From Sulfolobus acidocaldarius DSM 639 (GTDB lineage Archaea > Thermoproteota > Thermoprotei_A > Sulfolobales > Sulfolobaceae): a DNA stretch of 32,000 bases. The notes beneath the pieces were generated by a model. That model searched no databases. It had not been told where the DNA came from and saw nothing but the letters and a program-made list of their open reading frames with translations. Positions 318 through 10,031 of the stretch are shown one piece after another. Every line of letters begins with the position of its first letter. Position 1 is the first letter of the stretch. The stretch is taken from positions 1,830,001 to 1,862,000 of the forward strand of contig NC_007181.1 of NCBI RefSeq assembly GCF_000012285.1, in the 5' to 3' direction. Made by a program: the position numbers and the translations under genes.

Positions 318-1517
318 TCACCACATATATGACCTAATGAGAAGTAAGACCAGATTGAAGACATGGACACCTCTAACATTCAACCTCTTCAAGTATTCAC
401 CCCTAGTCTCCCTGTTCTTGTCCAACACGTAGTCGATAACCCTGCTGAACCTCATCCTCAATACCCCCTTATCGTGGACCCAGCACTTGTATAAGACATC
501 GTAAAACTTCTCAGTCTGAGGCAACGGGATTAGAAGGACTTTGTGATCCATGAAGTCCCCGACCCTCTCTTCAGGTACATACACCATGGGGTAAATGAAG
601 TTCTTGTTCAATTCCTTGATCACCCCAGTGTCTATTTCGCCTAGAACACAGGAGTTAGGTCGATTGATCAAGAGGGGAGACCTCCAGTTATTCTCACTGA
701 GCCTCAGGACTTCCCTGATCTTGCTCAGTTGAAAGCGGTATGAGGACTCAGCGCTTATCTGAGAAAATACAACTTTCTTTTCATTACCGTAACTGGAGGC
801 TAACCTCAGGAGACCTAAGATTTCGTCCTCTGTACCATAAGAGAGCAGGTCATCCGATATCAGGTTAAGGTAGTTGTGGTACCTTGACTGGACCTCTAAC
901 TCTGCCTCAACCACCTCTAGGGGTATCTTCCTGTCCTTTCTCTTTACCTCCACTTCTGCATTCGAAGAGGGTCTCCTGATGGCTACGAAATTCTTCGCCC
1001 TCTCCCCATACACTACCTTAGGTAGATTATCGCTACCCTCTCTAAGCAGTTTGGGCAATGTCTCCTCAGCCTCCCCCATTAGTACAGTATCGACCCACTC
1101 TGGAGTGTTGAGTGAAAACTCCCATGAACCAGGACCACCCACTATTACCTTGAAGTCATACCTATCCTTTAGCCTTGAGACTCTCCTTGATAGTTCCTGG
1201 AATGCGTGGAAGACGTAGGGCGGTTCTCCAAATATCTCAGAGAGCTTTGCAGAGACTTCAGTCTGATTTAAGGGGTCATTGACGTAAATCCCCAACACTT
1301 TGTCTGTCCTCAAGTATCTCTCTATCCTGTGAGGTGGGACAACGACACCGTTGACTAAGCTCTCTATTTTTCTCAAGCCATATGGAGGGTATTTACTCCC
1401 GGGGAAGAAGTCAGGTATGAGCCTCAGGGGGAGGGAGGGTAAGGAGTGGTAGGTTGCCTCGTCTGAGGTAAGGATCACACTATACTCTAGTGCGAGGAGG
1501 TATAAATTCTTCATCAC
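318..1517 (-). CDS. B12-binding/radical-SAM-like domain protein lacking the CxxxCxxC cluster motif; function unknown
   Basis: 399-aa ORF with no competing frame. The N-terminal half has the layout I associate with class-B radical SAM enzymes (PPYGLRKIES..., KVIVGGPGSW, VLMGEAEETLPKLL). Where the RGC-x3-C-x2-C segment should be, the sequence reads AIRRPSSNAEVEVKRKD with no Cys. The whole protein has only two Cys. GTG at 1517 or ATG at 1514 are the possible starts. Confidence 0.5.
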   Translation of the reverse strand: MMKNLYLLALEYSVILTSDEATYHSLPSLPLRLIPDFFPGSKYPPYGLRKIESLVNGVVVPPHRIERYLRTDKVLGIYVNDPLNQTEVSAKLSEIFGEPPYVFHAFQELSRRVSRLKDRYDFKVIVGGPGSWEFSLNTPEWVDTVLMGEAEETLPKLLREGSDNLPKVVYGERAKNFVAIRRPSSNAEVEVKRKDRKIPLEVVEAELEVQSRYHNYLNLISDDLLSYGTEDEILGLLRLASSYGNEKKVVFSQISAESSYRFQLSKIREVLRLSENNWRSPLLINRPNSCVLGEIDTGVIKELNKNFIYPMVYVPEERVGDFMDHKVLLIPLPQTEKFYDVLYKCWVHDKGVLRMRFSRVIDYVLDKNRETRGEYLKRLNVRGVHVFNLVLLLIRSYMW

Positions 1518-1597
1518 AGCCCTCTACGGTCTAAGTTGGAAAAAGTCAGGGGATCAGAGGGTTTGGAAAAGCCCACAGCCCTCTATAGTGTAAGTCG

Positions 1598-1612
1598 AAA
1601 AAGCTTATTACT
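1598..1612 (+). promoter_or_regulatory. Putative BRE/TATA element for the polyphosphate operon
   Basis: AAAGCTTATTAC is centred about 28 nt upstream of the ATG at 1633, which matches the spacing for leaderless Sulfolobales transcripts. Confidence 0.3.
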
Positions 1613-1632
1613 TTAGAGAACAATTATACATT

Positions 1633-2109
1633 ATGATAAATTTAATCATAGTTAGGCACGGGGAGGCTGAGCCCCAGGTAGACGGTACCGACGATAAGGA
1701 CAGGAAACTCATAAAGAAGGGTATAAAGCAGATGAAGAGAGTTGCGTCATTACTTGACCAGATGGACTACACAATTGACAGGTATCTGACCAGTACTTTG
1801 ATGAGGGCTTACCAGAGTGCCGAAGTCATATTAGACGAGTTAGGGGAGGACCAGGGCAAGATAGAGACCCTTAATGAGCTCAACCCTGACAGGGACCCAA
1901 TTGAGTTCATAAACAGGCTGAAAGACCTGGACAACATAAGTATCCTAGTTGTGGGACATGAGCCTTTTCTCTCCCACTTGATAAAGAGCCTGTGTGGGGG
2001 TAATGTTGAGATGAAGAAGGGTGCCCTTGCCGTTGTGGAGTACGACTCCAAGGAGGGTAAAGGGCAGTTGAAGTTACTACTTAACCAGAAGGTAATGAAG
2101 TTGATGTGA
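1633..2109 (+). CDS. sixA: SixA-type phosphohistidine phosphatase (histidine phosphatase superfamily)
   Basis: N-terminal IIVRHGEAEP (RHG catalytic motif) and a later VVGHEPFLSHL (second catalytic His). The 158-aa size is typical of SixA. Its stop TGA directly abuts the ATG of the next gene (2107-2112 TGAATG). Confidence 0.8.
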   Translation: MINLIIVRHGEAEPQVDGTDDKDRKLIKKGIKQMKRVASLLDQMDYTIDRYLTSTLMRAYQSAEVILDELGEDQGKIETLNELNPDRDPIEFINRLKDLDNISILVVGHEPFLSHLIKSLCGGNVEMKKGALAVVEYDSKEGKGQLKLLLNQKVMKLM

Positions 2110-3345
2110 ATGCGATATGCGGTAATAGACACGGGTTACAACTCCACAAGGCTGTGTATTTACGACCTTTTCCCAAACCAGACTTTCAGGATTTTAGGCT
2201 CCCAGAAGTCTTTCTTGAGACTTGGAGAGGGGGTGAAGGAGGGCTCCCCCATTTCCCCTGACAGGGTAAACGAAGCTGAGAAGGTCTTCAAGTCATTTAG
2301 GGCAATACTCAACAAGAAGGGTATAAAGGACGTAAAACTAGTGGGGACAAGTGCTTTCAGGTATGCCTCCAACGGCAACCAGGTGGCTGAACTACTGTCA
2401 GAGATTATTGGGGTTAAAATGAGAGTCCTCACAGGGGAAGAAGAGGGGGAGATGTCTGCCGTAGGTGTACTGAACACTCTCCCTGTGGACTCAGGGGCAA
2501 TGTTTGACCTTGGAGGAGGGTCACTTGAAGTGGTCTACTTTGACTCTAGGCAAGTTAAGGAGGTCTACCACTTTGACCTTGGGGCACTGAAGTTAGCTAG
2601 AGAGCTGAAAGACGAGAGTGAGTTGAGAAAGAGGATAAGGAGTGAGCTCTCGGTGTTAAAACCCATAAAGGGAGTGCTTGTCGGTTCAGGGGGGAATATA
2701 AGGGCAATAGCGAAGATGGACGCTAGAGTTTCAGCCTTTCCACTTAAGTCCATCCACGGTTACGTGATAAAGACAAAACAGATAGGCAAGTACTCCAAGG
2801 TGTTAATGAACCTCGACCCTGAGGAGAGGGAGAACTTACCTGGGATAGGTAAGGAGAGGTCATACACAGTGCACACAGCCTCAGTTGTCATTGAGGAGTT
2901 AGGTAACGCGTTGGACAGTCCGACCATCATGATCTCCTCCTTTGGTCTGAGGGAAGGTGTACTAATGGAGAGAGTCTTTGACAACCCCAGGGAGAGGTGG
3001 TTGGAGTCAATAGCCTACTGGTTTAATGTTGACCCGCCGTGGGAGTTATACAACTACTTCAATGACCAGTACATGAAGGTGGCGTCGTACATATCAGGTA
3101 TAATGAGGATGACAGGGTTTCTGGACCCATACGAGATGTGCCACAAATTCACTAAGTACGCTGTGGTGCCCGGGTTTACTGCAAGTGAGATGGTCATGAT
3201 GTCCCTCCTGTGTAAAGCCTCCACTGGGGAGTTGAAGAAAAAGAGTTTAGGCTCACTGAAGAGTGTCACAAACAAGTCTGAAGTCCTGAAGAAGGGGAAG
3301 GAGATAAGGAGGGTAGTAGAGTCGTCAGTGGCTGGTGTGCTATGA
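2110..3345 (+). CDS. ppx: Exopolyphosphatase, Ppx/GppA family
   Basis: [19 protein letters not shown] (ASKHA phosphate-1 motif, compare AxIDxGSNSxRL), DLGGGSLEV (phosphate-2) and GSGGNIRA. The 411-aa length is similar to the characterised Sulfolobus PPX. Confidence 0.9.
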
Positions 3346-3983
3346 AGGGTATTCTCATAGCCTTTGAGGGGATAGACGGTTCGGGTAAGTCAAGTCAGGC
3401 TTCCCTCCTCAAGAGCTGGTTGTCAAAGAGGAGGTATACCTTCATAACCGAGTGGAACTCATCTGAGTGGATCCACGACATCATAAAGGAGGCTAAGAAG
3501 AAGAACTTACTGACCCCACTGACATTTAGCCTAATCCACGCGACTGACTTTGCCGACAGGTATGAGAAGTACATACTACCAATGTTAAAGTGTGGGTTTG
3601 TTGTAATAGCTGACAGGTACATATACACTGCCTATGCAAGGGACAGTGTGAGGGGGGTCGACATCGAGTGGGTCAAGAAGCTATACTCCTTTGCTGTCAA
3701 ACCTGACATCACTTTTTACATAAGGGTTCCATCTGAGGTGGCACTGAAGAGGTTGAAGAGCTCAAGGAGACAGATCAAGCCAACAGAGGCTGGGGCTGAT
3801 GTATTCCCTAACCTTACCCCTGAGGAGGGCTTCATAAAGTACCAGTCGTCTATCATAGAAGTCTACGACAGGATAGCTGAGGAGAACAACTTTGTTGTTG
3901 TTGACGGCACAAAGGACCCAAGACAAGTACAGAGTGAGATAAGAGGTAAGGTGATGGAGTTATGGAGAAGGGAAGGATTATAG
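3342..3983 (+). CDS. Thymidylate-kinase-like P-loop kinase, paralogue 1 (candidate catalytic subunit of a crenarchaeal polyphosphate kinase)
   Basis: [15 protein letters not shown]-loop and [13 protein letters not shown] (DRY motif of the dTMP kinase family). It has a 4-nt ATGA overlap with ppx and sits directly beside ppx. Confidence 0.8.
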
Positions 3984-4594
3984 CAATAGAGGGTATAATG
4001 AGTTCAGGTAAGACCACCCACGTTCAGAGCTTGAGGGACTACCTGGAGGACAGGGGATATGTGGTTACAACTATAGGTATACAGTCGTCAAAGCTCATGG
4101 CGGACGCTATTGCCAGTGTGAAGAGGGACATTGTGTTCCAGAGGAGGACACTGTTCTTAGCCTATGTAACTGACCTAGCAGACCAGACGGAGAATTTAGT
4201 GAAGCCCTCACTGGACTCAGGTTTTATTGTCATAGCTGATGGTTATGTCCTGACACTGGAGGCTTGGGCTCTGACCAGGAGACTGGAGAGGGAGTGGGTC
4301 GAGGGGGTACTCTCCATGCTGCCTAAGGCGTCTCTCTCAATTTCCCTGATATCGCCCCCCACAGAGATAATGAGGAGGATCATAAAGAGGAAGGGGTTTC
4401 TTGACCCGCTGAGTGAGAGCGTTGACCTCAACGTGAAGGAAGACACGTTTTTGGCGTATAAGAAATACGTGAAGGAGTTTCAGAGTCACTTGAAGTCGAT
4501 CTCCCCAAATGTCCTAGTTACTAAAAACAACGTGAATGAAGTTAACAGGGAGATAGAGAGGTTAGTGAGGGAGGAGCTGAAAATTGACGCCTGA
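3962..4594 (+). CDS. Thymidylate-kinase-like P-loop protein, paralogue 2 (DRY motif degenerate; candidate non-catalytic or regulatory partner)
   Basis: [16 protein letters not shown]-loop. The position equivalent to DRY reads [13 protein letters not shown], so the Arg is lost. It overlaps paralogue 1 by 22 nt. Confidence 0.75.
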
Positions 4595-5204
4595 AAGGTA
4601 TGCCAACGCCCACCTCATTAAGTTCCTCCTCATAACAGGTATATCTCAGGAGGATATACACGACGCTAGGGTGGAGCTCAGAAAGTACTTGACCATAGCC
4701 AGGACAACGTATAAGTTACATAACAACCCTGAGTGCGTGTTAAGGGCGAGTAAGTTGATGAAGAGGCTTGGGAAAATAAGGGACATGGACATCTTAGCCT
4801 GTGTCAGGAGTGATAGCAGAGACAAGCTAGCTAGGGAGACTGTGAGTATGTTTCAAGTCATGAGGAAGTACCTGCTCCCAAGACTTTACGGTAGCAGACT
4901 CCTAGTTGCGGAGAGGATCTACAACGACTACAGGAGGTTGAAGGAGGAGGTGGAGTTTCACTCTATTAGGAAGATAGTGAGGGAAGTGAGGTTCCTAGTG
5001 GAGAGCCTTGACCTGAGCTCAGATGTGTTGAAGGACATATCCCAGGAAATGGGAAGTATGAGGGACAGATATCTGTTTGACACCGTATGTTTAGGAAAAG
5101 ATGGTGGGTTTAATGAGGAGAGGGTGAAGGAGCTTAAGGAAAGAGCTTTGGAGGAGATCGTGGAGAAACTGAGACTGACTAACTTTAAGCACTTGAAAGT
5201 ATGA
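4584..5204 (+). CDS. CHAD-domain protein (polyphosphate-granule associated family)
   Basis: Alpha-helical protein with the repeated His/Arg motifs of CHAD: DIHDARVELRKYLTIAR, LGKIRDMDIL, FHSIRKIVREVRFLVESL, MGSMRDRYL. A TTG start overlaps the upstream gene by 11 nt. Confidence 0.7.
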   Translation: MTPERYANAHLIKFLLITGISQEDIHDARVELRKYLTIARTTYKLHNNPECVLRASKLMKRLGKIRDMDILACVRSDSRDKLARETVSMFQVMRKYLLPRLYGSRLLVAERIYNDYRRLKEEVEFHSIRKIVREVRFLVESLDLSSDVLKDISQEMGSMRDRYLFDTVCLGKDGGFNEERVKELKERALEEIVEKLRLTNFKHLKV

Positions 5205-5545
5205 CCAATTGGAGTGTAGTGGCTAAAGAGGTTAGAAGAGAAAAATTAGTCTGAGGTTACAGTCATGTCATCATACTTTTACGTTTTGATATCGCCCGTG
5301 TAAACTAGGATACTTTTTTGTTCACATCGGACGTAGTGTGGAAAAATTTGAAGCAGTTAGACTGATTCTTATACACACCTCTCATGAATTTAATGCACAA
5401 CATATTAAGCATGTACCAATAGGGTCAGTCCTAGAGCCACTCTCCCTTGACATAAACAGGGCTAATCCTAAGTGAACTGGATCATCTGCTGAATGGTAAA
5501 AATTTTAATTAACAGGAACAAATAATATAATTAATAGGTTGTTAG

Positions 5546-5912: not shown

Positions 5913-6542
5913 GTGGAAAAACTACTGAGACCTAAGGAAGTCTGCCAAACTCTAGGCATAAGTTATAGGACTTTGTTGAGGTGGATTGATCAAGGTAAGA
6001 TAAAGGCTGTTAAGACTGAGGGTGGTATTTATAGGATACCTTACAGTGAAGTCGAGAGGATTTTAAAGAATAAGATAACTAACGAAGTTAGAGCAGTCAT
6101 TTACGCTAGGGTATCATCATCAGACCAAAAAAGTGATTTAGATAGGCAGATAGAATACCTGACAAACTATTGCTTGGCAAAGGGATATAAGGTAGTCGAT
6201 ACATTAAGTGACATATCAAGTGGTTTAAACACTAAGAGGAAGAACTTGTTAAAACTCTTCCAGCTAGTCAAAGAAGGAAAGGTTGATGTTGTAGTTATAA
6301 CTTACAAGGATAGGCTTACTAGGTTTGGGTTCGAGTACCTAGAGTACTTCTTCCAACAGTTTGGTGTTAGGGTAGAAGTCGTACTGGGTGAAGAGCCAAA
6401 GGATGCGTACCAAGAGCTTGTAGAGGACTTGTTATCAATAGTTACAAGCTTTGCTGGTAAACTTTACGGTATAAGGAGTCATAAGAAGACGTTGCTGAGA
6501 GAAGGTGTAAAAAAGTTGATAGGTGAGTTAAGTGAAAAGTGA
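5913..6542 (+). CDS. tnpA: IS607-family transposase TnpA (MerR-like HTH + serine recombinase/resolvase domain)
   Basis: N-terminal HTH LLRPKEVCQTLGISYRTLLRWIDQGKI followed by AVIYARVSSSDQKSDLDRQ (catalytic Ser motif of serine recombinases). Confidence 0.9.
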   Translation: MEKLLRPKEVCQTLGISYRTLLRWIDQGKIKAVKTEGGIYRIPYSEVERILKNKITNEVRAVIYARVSSSDQKSDLDRQIEYLTNYCLAKGYKVVDTLSDISSGLNTKRKNLLKLFQLVKEGKVDVVVITYKDRLTRFGFEYLEYFFQQFGVRVEVVLGEEPKDAYQELVEDLLSIVTSFAGKLYGIRSHKKTLLREGVKKLIGELSEK

Positions 6543-7788
6543 TGATCACCTAGTTAGGACTGTAATGTTAAGCCTTAAAGTCAACTCAGAAGTTTATACA
6601 AGGCTCAAGGAGGTTGAGGAGGAGTATAAGCAAATACTTGAGGACGCCATAGATTACGGTTTAAGGAATAACATAAAGTCGTTTACAAGGCTTAAGGCCG
6701 GTATCTATAGGCAAGAAAGGGCTAGACACCCCTCTCTACCATCTCATTACATCTACACAGCTTGTGAAGACGCTAGTGCTAGGTTAAAGAGCTTTATGAG
6801 GAGGAAAAAGGAAGGAAAAACGTACACTGACAAGCCTGAACTTAGAAATGTTACTGTCCACCTAGACGACCACTTGTGGAGGTTTTCCCTAGGCGAAGTT
6901 AGGATTGCTACAAGAAAGGGTTGGGTGTCATTAAAGCCATTCTTCACTAAACTGTTCTGGAAGTACTACAATAAAGGTTGGGCTCTAGCTAGCGAGTCCT
7001 CTTTCAAACTGTGTAAAGGAAACGTGGTTAAGCTTTACCCAGTCTTTAAGAAACCATTACCAAAGCCTTACGACGTCAAGGGCTTCATACCAGTTGACTT
7101 AAACGAGGACAATGTTTCCTTACTGCTAGACGGCAAACCTTTACTGGTAGAGACTAGTGTTAAGAAGATTACTTTAGGTTATGCTTACAAGAGGAAGAGG
7201 ATTAGTGAGGGTAGGTCTACGAAGGATAGGGATGTTAAGAGGGCTTTGAAGAGCTTGAAAGAGAGGTTTAAGAAATTGGACATTCGTAGAAAGTTGGCTA
7301 AGCTGATTGTCACTGAGGCTTTGAGAGAGGGTAAGGGTATAGTGCTAGAAGACTTACCTAAAAATACTCCAGAGAAGATGGTTCAAGACATTAAGGACAA
7401 ACAGCTGAGGGACAGGATTTACAAGTCTGCTTTTGCATCTCTGAAAAATGCTATCGTAGAGAAGGCTAAGGAGTTTGGTGTACCTGTTTTACTAGTTAAC
7501 CCTGCTTATACTTCCTCTGTTTGTCCAATACATGAGTGTAAAATCATTTACCCACCCGATGGGAGCTCTGCTCCAAGGGTGGGCATGTGTGAGAAGGGTA
7601 GAGAGGAGTGGCATAGGGATGTAGTAGCGTTATACAACCTCTTAAAGAAGGCTGGTTATGTGAGCCCAATGCCGTTGGGCTCGAAGGAGTCCCATGACCC
7701 ACTCACCGTAAGATTAGGTGAGTGGTTGAGGGCTAAGTCCCTACACTTGACCTTGAATGTCAATAGAATGATGGGAATGACAGTGTAG
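6532..7788 (+). CDS. tnpB: TnpB/OrfB RNA-guided endonuclease (IS200/IS605-IS607 accessory protein)
   Basis: RuvC-like motifs are present: FIPVDLNEDN (D), GIVLEDLPKN (E) and EEWHRDVVALYNL (D). A Zn-finger-like CPIHEC...MCEKG...H lies between them. It has an 11-nt overlap with tnpA. Confidence 0.9.
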   Translation: MKSDDHLVRTVMLSLKVNSEVYTRLKEVEEEYKQILEDAIDYGLRNNIKSFTRLKAGIYRQERARHPSLPSHYIYTACEDASARLKSFMRRKKEGKTYTDKPELRNVTVHLDDHLWRFSLGEVRIATRKGWVSLKPFFTKLFWKYYNKGWALASESSFKLCKGNVVKLYPVFKKPLPKPYDVKGFIPVDLNEDNVSLLLDGKPLLVETSVKKITLGYAYKRKRISEGRSTKDRDVKRALKSLKERFKKLDIRRKLAKLIVTEALREGKGIVLEDLPKNTPEKMVQDIKDKQLRDRIYKSAFASLKNAIVEKAKEFGVPVLLVNPAYTSSVCPIHECKIIYPPDGSSAPRVGMCEKGREEWHRDVVALYNLLKKAGYVSPMPLGSKESHDPLTVRLGEWLRAKSLHLTLNVNRMMGMTV

Positions 7789-8912: not shown

Positions 8913-8950
8913 ACTTCTAGGGGTAGAAGTTACTTCTAGGGGTAGAAGTT
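8913..8950 (+). repeat. Perfect 19-bp tandem duplication (ACTTCTAGGGGTAGAAGTT x2)
   Basis: Copy 1 is 8913-8931 and copy 2 is 8932-8950, identical base for base. The TTG start of the downstream ATPase gene (8949) is formed at the end of copy 2. Confidence 0.95.
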
Positions 8951-10031
8951 GCTTTTCGACCCAACTCCAAAGGACAACAGGGAGGACTTCTTTAATAGAG
9001 ATGAGGAGATAAACAGGGTCAGATCACTTTCCTCACCAATTACACTAGTTTTAGGACTCAGGAGAACAGGTAAATCCTCTATCATAAAGATAGCACTTAA
9101 CGAGTTATCTTTGCCATACATATACTTAGACCTGAGGAAATTCGAGGACAGGGCATACATCTCCTTTAAAGACCTCCTACTTGAGTTGGAGAGAGAAGTG
9201 AAAAAACTCACAAGGAAGTTCCCGTCACTAGTAGACTTCTTAAAGGGAGTTAAAGGGGTAAGTATAGCAGGAAACGAGGTGAGGTTTAACTGGGGAGTAA
9301 AAAATAGGTTAAACTTCAGTGACTTGTTGGAAACACTAAATGATTGGTCAAAGGACAGGGTCATTATAGCCTTTGATGAAGCCCAAGACCTGATAAACCT
9401 CAGGGGAGTAAACTTACTTTACCCATTGGCTTATACATTTGATAACCTCAAAAAGGTGAGAATAATAATGAGTGGAAGTGAGATGAGGTTACTCTACAGG
9501 TTTTTGGGAGTTGAAAACCCAAAGTCACCACTATTTGGGAGGGCAATGAATGAGGTCGAACTTAGACCCTTTGACCACGAGAAGAGCATAGAGTTTCTGA
9601 GGAGAGGCTTTAAGGAGGTGAATGTTGAGTTTAGGGAATATGAAAGGGTTTATGAAGAGCTGGGAGGAATACCAGGCTGGTTAACGTATTTTGGCTACTA
9701 CTTTATCCAGACAAGGAACTTAGAGGAGAGTATGGACAGAACGCTTGAGAGGGCTAAAGGGTTGGTGATGGAGGAGTTCAACAATTTCCTCTCTAAGAGG
9801 CTAATAGCTAAGGAGAGGTATATGGTAATAATGAAGAGAATAGCGAATGGCTGTAGTAGATGGAGCGAGATAAAGACCGCTGTGGAGATTCATGAGGGTA
9901 GAGAGATTAGCGACTCAGAGATCTATAACTACCTTAACAACCTGATGGACTCATCCTGGATAGTAAAGGACGAGGAGAAAAATGAATATTGTCCTGCTGA
10001 AAAGCTTATAGGTAGAGTGTTTAGGGTTTGA
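8949..10031 (+). CDS. 'Archaeal ATPase' family AAA+ protein (PF01637-like) with a C-terminal winged-helix (DUF234-like) region
   Basis: FFNRDEEINRV N-terminal motif, Walker A GLRRTGKSS, Walker B IIAFDEAQ, and a C-terminal YLNNLMDSSWIVK-type wHTH. An in-frame TAG at 8943-8945 fixes the start at TTG 8949. Confidence 0.85.
   Translation: MLFDPTPKDNREDFFNRDEEINRVRSLSSPITLVLGLRRTGKSSIIKIALNELSLPYIYLDLRKFEDRAYISFKDLLLELEREVKKLTRKFPSLVDFLKGVKGVSIAGNEVRFNWGVKNRLNFSDLLETLNDWSKDRVIIAFDEAQDLINLRGVNLLYPLAYTFDNLKKVRIIMSGSEMRLLYRFLGVENPKSPLFGRAMNEVELRPFDHEKSIEFLRRGFKEVNVEFREYERVYEELGGIPGWLTYFGYYFIQTRNLEESMDRTLERAKGLVMEEFNNFLSKRLIAKERYMVIMKRIANGCSRWSEIKTAVEIHEGREISDSEIYNYLNNLMDSSWIVKDEEKNEYCPAEKLIGRVFRV

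Follow-up and report, generated by a model that had tools for sequence, protein, structure and literature searches.

Why would a SixA-type histidine phosphatase and a short CHAD protein stay translationally locked to an exopolyphosphatase (PPX) and a polyphosphate kinase (PPK3) in thermoacidophilic archaea? The question is raised by five genes at positions 1633-5204 of a 32,000-nucleotide (nt) stretch of the Sulfolobus acidocaldarius DSM 639 chromosome (NC_007181.1, positions 1,830,001 to 1,862,000), which is called the window in this text. It is almost beyond doubt that this locus is the polyphosphate (polyP) operon saci_2017-saci_2021 of S. acidocaldarius, which has already been characterised by experiment.

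In an exact-sequence look-up, the five proteins of the window are exact matches to GenBank AAY81313.1-AAY81317.1, and the window matches an S. acidocaldarius chromosome (CP046615.1, at about 2.05 Mb) with 100% identity over 10,594 nt. As the proteins of the third and fourth open reading frames (ORFs) are the cloned AAY81315.1 and AAY81316.1, the locus is the SaPPK3 operon. No evidence contradicting this identification was met in the sequence, homology and literature comparisons.

Published work on the locus

Höfmann et al. (J Biol Chem 2026, PMC12995831; preprint bioRxiv 10.1101/2024.08.28.610084) cloned saci_2019 (AAY81315.1) and saci_2020 (AAY81316.1) and described SaPPK3 as a heteromeric, reversible polyphosphate kinase with a catalytic and a regulatory subunit. 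In their assays, polyP was made from ATP by Saci_2019, while Saci_2020 was inactive alone and activated Saci_2019 at a 1:1 ratio. Neither protein had thymidylate (dTMP) kinase activity, the real dTMP kinase being the product of saci_0893. The enzyme is an alpha2-beta2 complex, and the reaction of polyP and ADP to ATP is strongly favoured when the ATP/ADP ratio is low.

On the basis of transcriptome data, the same paper describes an operon in which the two kinase genes lie between sixA (saci_2017) and ppx (saci_2018) on one side and the CHAD gene (saci_2021) on the other, and the SixA-PPX-dTMP kinase-CHAD cluster of Sulfolobales had been drawn earlier (PMC10892726, Fig. 2). Consequently, the five-gene operon, with sixA and the CHAD gene included, was already known. 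A previous sequence-only reading of this DNA had pointed to a third PPK family formed by two genes resembling those of thymidylate kinases (TMKs) beside ppx, and this was accurate. It had also regarded SixA and CHAD as functionally unexplained, in agreement with the Discussion of PMC12995831, which leaves the roles of both for future study.

Gene layout and expression signals

All five genes lie on the forward strand. The first, sixA (saci_2017, AAY81313.1; 1633-2109), encodes a SixA-type histidine phosphatase of 158 amino acids (aa), and ppx (saci_2018, AAY81314.1; 2110-3345) encodes a Ppx/GppA-family exopolyphosphatase of 411 aa. They are followed by the genes of the catalytic subunit of polyphosphate kinase family 3, cPPK3 (saci_2019, AAY81315.1; 3342-3983; 213 aa), and of the regulatory, catalytically inactive subunit, rPPK3 (saci_2020, AAY81316.1; 3962-4594; 210 aa). 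The last gene (saci_2021, AAY81317.1; 4584-5204) encodes a short CHAD-domain protein of 206 aa and has a TTG start, which agrees with the aligned N-termini of its homologues (MTPERYAN and MRPEEYAN).

The stop codon of sixA abuts the start codon of ppx (TGA/ATG at 2107-2112, with a gap of 0 nt), ppx and cPPK3 overlap by 4 nt (ATGA at 3342-3345), and the overlaps reach 22 nt between cPPK3 and rPPK3 (3962-3983) and 11 nt between rPPK3 and the CHAD gene (4584-4594). The sequence-only reading had listed five same-strand ORFs without intergenic space and these four junctions, and the ORF list and a direct reading of the sequence show it to be correct in every detail. It had also placed a TATA-like box upstream of the first gene. 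Such a box is found in a putative archaeal promoter at 1596-1610 of the forward strand, where a purine-rich sequence resembling a B recognition element (CGAAAAAG, 1596-1603) is followed by the TATA-like CTTATTA (1604-1610), 29 nt upstream of the sixA ATG. The spacing is conserved: among the eight sequences aligned, which are the window and seven related loci with an upstream region, seven have a CTTATTA or CTTAAAT box ending 29-30 nt ahead of the start codon, the exception being locus L004, with a different A/T-rich stretch at this place. Another candidate TATA box, TATAGTG (1584-1590), was rejected: from species to species it lies at varying distances from the start codon, whereas CTTATTA stays at a fixed one.

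In Sulfolobus promoters, a spacing of about 29 nt between box and start codon predicts a leaderless transcript. The position of the sixA box implies, as a prediction from sequence, a leaderless or near-leaderless mRNA. Within the operon, GGTG (3334-3337) lies 4 nt upstream of the cPPK3 ATG, a Shine-Dalgarno-like GGTGAT (3950-3955) lies 6 nt upstream of the rPPK3 ATG, and a Shine-Dalgarno-like GGAGG (4570-4574) precedes the start of the CHAD gene. The ppx start has no Shine-Dalgarno-like element, only the abutment of TGA and ATG. Past the last stop codon, by 70-115 nt, there are T-rich tracts on the forward strand (CTTTTAC, GTTTTG and CTTTTTTG; 5276-5321), where the GC content falls from 0.48 to 0.35-0.39, and these tracts probably form an archaeal oligo-T termination zone for the operon transcript. 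A scan for sigma-70 promoters and intrinsic terminators gave no more hits than in shuffled sequences, and its models are not applicable to archaea.

The genes share one strand, leave no intergenic gaps, keep their order across species and have one conserved promoter element upstream, all of which agrees with an operon. Probably, one promoter upstream of sixA would produce a leaderless five-gene mRNA. Translation of the downstream genes from this mRNA would proceed by stop-start coupling or through the overlaps, with the aid of the GGTG, GGTGAT and GGAGG elements, and that of ppx through the TGA/ATG abutment.

PPX and the short CHAD protein

The assignment of the second gene to the Ppx/GppA family, made from motifs in the sequence-only reading, holds. 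The protein reaches 141.4 bits with Pfam Ppx-GppA (PF02541; cut-off 27), its ASKHA phosphate-binding motifs (DxGx... and GSGGN) are invariant in eight orthologues, and it matches exopolyphosphatases in the PDB at E values down to 6e-30. Its C-terminal 120 aa are unlike those of bacterial PPX. By homology, this enzyme would hydrolyse polyP to phosphate (Pi).

A separate observation concerns ppx in another S. acidocaldarius sequence (CP020360.1, locus L012), in which a segment of exactly 141 bp, corresponding to window positions 2845-2985, is inverted inside the gene. The segment is flanked by a 6-nt inverted repeat (CCTGGG...CCCAGG), and its inversion breaks the gene up into three ORFs (252, 55 and 114 aa), of which the product of 252 aa is recorded on three contigs. 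Either the strain is a natural ppx-null variant, or the inversion is an artefact of assembly.

For the CHAD protein, single-sequence and profile searches of PDB sequences returned either nothing or only 6qv7 and 3e0s at E = 0.018, and consequently a comparison of folds was needed. A leucine-rich-repeat match in the PDB was judged spurious. A profile-based search gave 23 homologues of saci_2021, and 17 of the 21 aligned members that were tested against Pfam match CHAD (best E = 7e-08). The AlphaFold2 model built from the family alignment is an all-helical bundle (predicted local distance difference test score, pLDDT, 95.2; predicted template modelling score, pTM, 0.91). When it was compared with the PDB by Foldseek, the top two structures were the CHAD domains 6qva, from Chlorobium tepidum with polyP bound, and 6rn5, the Streptomyces phosin PptA (probability 1.00, TM-score 0.50-0.53), with modest E values of 3e-3 and 9e-3. 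The model shares with them the helical bundle and the repeated His/Arg motifs, but the sequence identity is 12-14% and the length is about 206 aa versus 283-310 aa. An HxxRxxxR motif occurs twice (H26/R29/R33 and H126/R129/R133), and H26, R29, R33, R66, R105, H126, R129, K130 and R133 are invariant in the family.

We accept, partly from this structural model, that saci_2021 is a short CHAD protein of about 206 aa. The sequence-only reading had arrived at the same family, and although the protein alone stays below the threshold for it, the assignment is supported by the matches of its relatives, the predicted fold and the conserved His and basic residues. By homology, the protein would bind polyP through its conserved His/Arg helices, and it probably tethers or presents the polymer. 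Our literature search found no study of polyP binding or granule localisation for saci_2021. According to PMC10892726, Lorenzo-Orts et al. 2019 had the Sa. solfataricus protein SSO_1190 among the CHAD proteins that they considered.

Conservation of the five-gene unit

A scan of genome contigs with cPPK3 retrieved eight other Sulfolobales loci (L001-L008), which were used for gene order and alignments, and two canonical bacterial tmk genes in a tmk-holB context (L009 and L010), used only as negative controls; S. acidocaldarius itself was not among its results. A profile search with rPPK3 and neighbourhood look-ups added L013, L014, L015 and L016. The order SixA-PPX-cPPK3-rPPK3-CHAD is kept in all eight Sulfolobales loci, one of which (L007) is cut before SixA, with junction gaps between -26 and +12 nt. 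The published clusters of other Sulfolobales, such as that of S. tokodaii with STK_15430, likewise share the five genes, their order and the tight junctions (PMC10892726, Fig. 2). Such a recurrence of order and tight junctions in eight other loci indicates that the arrangement is not due to chance. By contrast, there are no polyP neighbours at the canonical tmk loci L009 and L010. Across the Sulfolobales loci, identity to the window protein is 68-81% for cPPK3, 45-74% for SixA, 46-71% for rPPK3, 38-65% for PPX and 37-48% for CHAD.

Outside this order, a 260-kb contig of a Thermoplasmatales metagenome-assembled genome (JAJSLQ010000002.1, L013) carries a complete SixA-PPX-cPPK3-rPPK3-CHAD-like unit, whose cPPK3 and rPPK3 are about 68% and 45% identical to the S. 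acidocaldarius proteins. Judging from the sequences, the Thermoplasmatales unit (L013, with L007 named alongside it) looks like a transfer between co-habiting thermoacidophiles. For PPK3, the groups given in the abstract of PMC12995831 are for the most part Sulfolobaceae, Nitrososphaeraceae and some few bacteria. The bacterial clusters that we compared, in Nitrospira (CP060499.1, L014) and Gemmatimonadota (JACCXV010000099.1, L016), share with S. acidocaldarius the succession of PPX and two overlapping TMK-like genes, the first with TEWNSS and DRY motifs. They differ in having a long PPX with domain III and an HD domain, a second subunit that retains DRY but has lost the Walker-A Lys to Arg, a SixA that is convergent or absent, and a CHAD gene that is absent or divergent and 585 aa long; in L016, Pst transporter genes are adjacent.

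Several caveats go with the identification of the locus. PPX misses the NCBIfam cut-off of TIGR03706 ('exo_poly_only'; 221.1 versus 307 bits), although this is still its best-scoring model. The saci_2021 protein misses the Pfam gathering score of CHAD (PF05235; 22.1 versus 25.6 bits), is about 100 residues shorter than the solved CHAD domains, and its model superposes on 6qva and 6rn5 with a high root-mean-square deviation. Internal promoters may exist within the operon. Additionally, the accessory genes are not constant: CHAD is missing from L015, a related metagenomic contig with the other four genes; Nitrospira L014 has PPX-TMK-TMK with a His_Phos_1 gene convergent on the opposite strand and is also missing CHAD; and Gemmatimonadota L016 has its divergent 585-aa CHAD gene, PPX-TMK-TMK and pst genes, with SixA missing.

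As SixA or CHAD is missing in L014, L015 and L016, the comparison of sequences indicates that the invariant core is PPX with the two kinase subunits, and that SixA and CHAD are recurrent accessories, not universal PPK3 partners. This accessory status matches the neighbourhood analysis of PMC12995831. The presence of both accessories around ppx, to which the sequence-only reading had attached its proposal, was confirmed for all complete Sulfolobales loci, but it did not extend to these three more distant loci.

The kinase subunits

cPPK3 matches S. tokodaii STK_15430 (PDB 2plr/5h70) at E = 2.7e-106, and its P-loop GIDGSGKS and its DRY motif are invariant in an alignment of nine orthologues. For rPPK3, the best PDB match is again the homologue of cPPK3, with an E value of only 2.6e-18. 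Its DRX motif has lost the arginine and reads DGY in all nine archaeal sequences aligned, in agreement with the loss described in PMC12995831. The Walker-A Lys of rPPK3 is Arg in seven of the nine archaeal sequences, and Lys is kept only in S. acidocaldarius and in its closest relative, the metagenome-assembled L001. Hence the sequence-only reading was right to assign a TMK-like fold to both proteins, but the second one is an inactive regulatory subunit (DGY instead of DRY) and not a second kinase. As a side observation from an alignment of L014, L016, P0150 and P0168 with the window proteins, the signature of the dead subunit is lineage-specific: DGY in archaeal rPPK3, and DRY together with a Walker-A Lys to Arg change (GVGRST or SSGRST) in the bacterial second subunits.

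A competing explanation, which follows the database annotation, is that the two TMK-like genes encode ordinary dTMP kinases and merely lie beside ppx. Both proteins do match Pfam Thymidylate_kin (100 bits for the product of the third ORF and 43.6 bits for that of the fourth), the former is above the NCBIfam dTMP kinase cut-off (105.8 versus 83.25 bits), and public records call both dTMP kinase. However, the true tmk loci L009 and L010 score higher on the TMK model and have unrelated neighbours, and in cPPK3 the canonical dTMP-binding motif of TMKs, T(R/A)EPxG (TAEPTKG and TREPGGT in L009 and L010), is replaced by TEWNSS, while rPPK3 is devoid of the catalytic arginine. The enzymology described above (PMC12995831), with PPK activity of Saci_2019, no dTMP kinase activity in either protein and saci_0893 as the real dTMP kinase, refutes this explanation, to which we give practically no chance. 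A pair with dTMP kinase activity alone, the outcome that the sequence-only reading had regarded as fatal to its proposal, is the opposite of what these assays show.

In the mechanism supported by the published work, the active cPPK3 (DRY) and the inactive rPPK3 (DGY) would assemble into an alpha2-beta2 complex, a P-loop kinase from the thymidylate-kinase superfamily, which would interconvert ATP and polyP reversibly, mainly in the direction of polyP and ADP to ATP. The sequence-only reading had seen in the module one unit of synthesis, degradation and anchoring; as the enzyme strongly favours ATP formation, 'energy and phosphate buffer' describes it better than 'synthesis unit'. A comparable pairing of an active and an inactive P-loop module, with a bias to polyP-dependent nucleotide phosphorylation, is found in the class II two-domain PPK2 of P. 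aeruginosa (PA3455; PMC12995831, Discussion), which differs from PPK3 in belonging to another P-loop family, in being a single fused polypeptide and in using AMP, not ADP, as substrate.

The role of SixA

The protein of saci_2017 is a SixA-type histidine phosphatase, as the sequence-only reading had it: it scores 52 bits with Pfam His_Phos_1 and 96.2 bits with the NCBIfam SixA equivalog TIGR00249 (cut-off 74.5), and its closest solved structures are Nostoc Alr0221 (3f2i) and E. coli SixA (1ujb). Residues R8, H9, R24, R58 and H109 align with those of 1ujb and are invariant in seven orthologues, so that the catalytic Arg/His set is the same as in the E. coli enzyme. No published activity assay for saci_2017 was found in the literature. 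E. coli SixA acts on the phospho-histidines of HPt and NPr. As Sulfolobales, to our knowledge, have no two-component systems, the substrate of the saci_2017 protein must be a different one.

One explanation of its presence in the operon is a phospho-histidine on PPK3 or on a partner, which could be an intermediate of catalysis or a mark for regulation; SixA would remove it and so be a direct switch of the kinase. Candidate sites would be His20 of rPPK3, which is invariant and directly follows the P-loop (cPPK3 and canonical TMKs carry Gln there), or His45 and His66 of cPPK3, both invariant in the alignment. This idea gains from the fact that saci_2017 is a true member of the SixA family with an intact active site, from its being better conserved than PPX across Sulfolobales (identity 45-74% versus 38-65%, invariant positions 31% versus 23%), and from its place as the first gene of the Sulfolobales and Thermoplasmatales operons and beside the cluster in Nitrospira. 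However, direct phosphate transfer with no phospho-enzyme is the rule for P-loop kinases of the TMK family, and the intermediate suggested in the sequence-only reading is not expected for such a kinase. Furthermore, the Gemmatimonadota PPK3 locus L016 has no SixA, and His20 is Gln in that bacterial homologue. Recombinant cPPK3 and rPPK3 are also active in both directions without SixA, and SixA/PhoE genes lie beside PPK1 and PPK2 as well (PMC12995831), which indicates that the link between SixA and polyP predates PPK3. For these reasons, a phospho-histidine intermediate on the kinase is unlikely, SixA probably does not remove an obligatory one, and we hold a direct switch of any kind to be quite improbable. 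Much the same low credence goes to the proposal that SixA belongs to the PPK3 machinery as a functional component, setting its direction or activity by dephosphorylating a subunit or a polyP-associated protein, with CHAD holding the polymer.

It could also be argued that SixA, CHAD or both are historical passengers from a PPK1-type cluster whose kinase was exchanged in situ, and that they are co-transcribed but have no PPK3-specific role; SixA, for instance, may act on an unrelated phospho-protein or a small phosphoester. PPK3 neighbourhoods do resemble those of PPK1, and replacement in situ has been proposed (PMC12995831). Moreover, the accessories come and go (CHAD being missing in L015 and L014, and SixA in L016), and CHAD is the least conserved of the five proteins, with 37-48% identity. 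By contrast, none of the complete Sulfolobales loci has lost either gene, and one Thermoplasmatales locus has kept both as well; they abut or overlap their neighbours and their catalytic or binding residues are intact, which argues for continued selection inside the unit. We regard the passenger explanation as unlikely, yet it deserves more credit than a kinase switch. Most likely, SixA is a polyP-linked phosphatase of a function still undefined, which we rank above both of these explanations because of its strong conservation and locked junctions in thermoacidophiles. Our best guess is that this catalytically intact enzyme would perform a regulatory or housekeeping dephosphorylation tied to polyP turnover.

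Surroundings of the operon

The operon and a divergent ORF of 399 aa form a sharply bounded GC-rich block at 318-5204 (GC 0.46-0.49; GC at third codon positions, GC3, 0.59-0.62) in an AT-rich region of the genome. GC3 is 0.23-0.34 for the genes at 16-30 kb of the window and intermediate (0.37-0.55) at 5.5-14 kb. A like contrast is seen in L001, with a GC content of 0.54 in the operon and 0.34 in its left flank. These differences in composition suggest a lateral acquisition of the cassette; GC content is not mentioned in PMC12995831.

The 399-aa ORF (318-1517, reverse strand) is divergent from sixA and shares the GC-rich composition of the operon. It has no Pfam family, and its NCBIfam B12-binding/radical-SAM score is 22.8 bits versus a cut-off of 251. 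As tblastn found no counterpart beside the operon in other genomes, this ORF is not considered part of the operon unit. A 29-nt direct repeat, CACAGCCCTCTA(CG/TA)GT(C/G)TAAGT..AAAA, occurs at 1515-1543 and 1574-1602 with 83% identity and a spacing of 59 nt. The first copy overlaps the start of the divergent ORF, and the second lies just upstream of the TATA-like box of sixA and contains TATAGTG, which is also found upstream of the box in L005, L006 and L008 (TATAGAG in L001). From its sequence and position, the repeat may be a regulator site.

About 700 nt past the operon there is an IS607-family element (ISC1913-like, 5913-7788) with a serine recombinase gene (resolvase and helix-turn-helix, 209 aa) that overlaps a TnpB/Cas12f-like gene (418 aa); the 90%-identity cluster of this TnpB consists of 24 S. 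acidocaldarius sequences. At the other side, a CRISPR repeat (Rfam CRISPR-DR25, 44.6 bits) lies at 11-35 on the reverse strand and is followed by two decayed copies, one at about 80-104 and one at about 145-170. Together, the three are read from sequence as a mini-array or as what is left of a CRISPR array. In L012 (CP020360.1), genes that match Pfam Csa1 are found further upstream. Finally, a partly palindromic 19-nt tandem repeat (ACTTCTAGGGGTAGAAGTT, 2.2 copies) is located at 8913-8954, just before an ORF of the ATPase_2 family (8949-10031).

Meaning for polyphosphate metabolism in Sulfolobales

The locus ended the long-standing lack of a polyphosphate kinase in Crenarchaeota, and this was published for exactly this DNA. 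What remains is the question with which we opened, also posed by the published authors: why the SixA-type phosphatase and the short CHAD protein stay bound to PPX and PPK3 in thermoacidophiles. The comparative data sharpen it slightly, since the core is invariant, SixA is better conserved than PPX within Sulfolobales, and the accessories can be lost elsewhere. If SixA did act on the kinase machinery, improbable as we consider it, an archaeon with, as far as we know, no two-component systems would possess a phospho-histidine switch.

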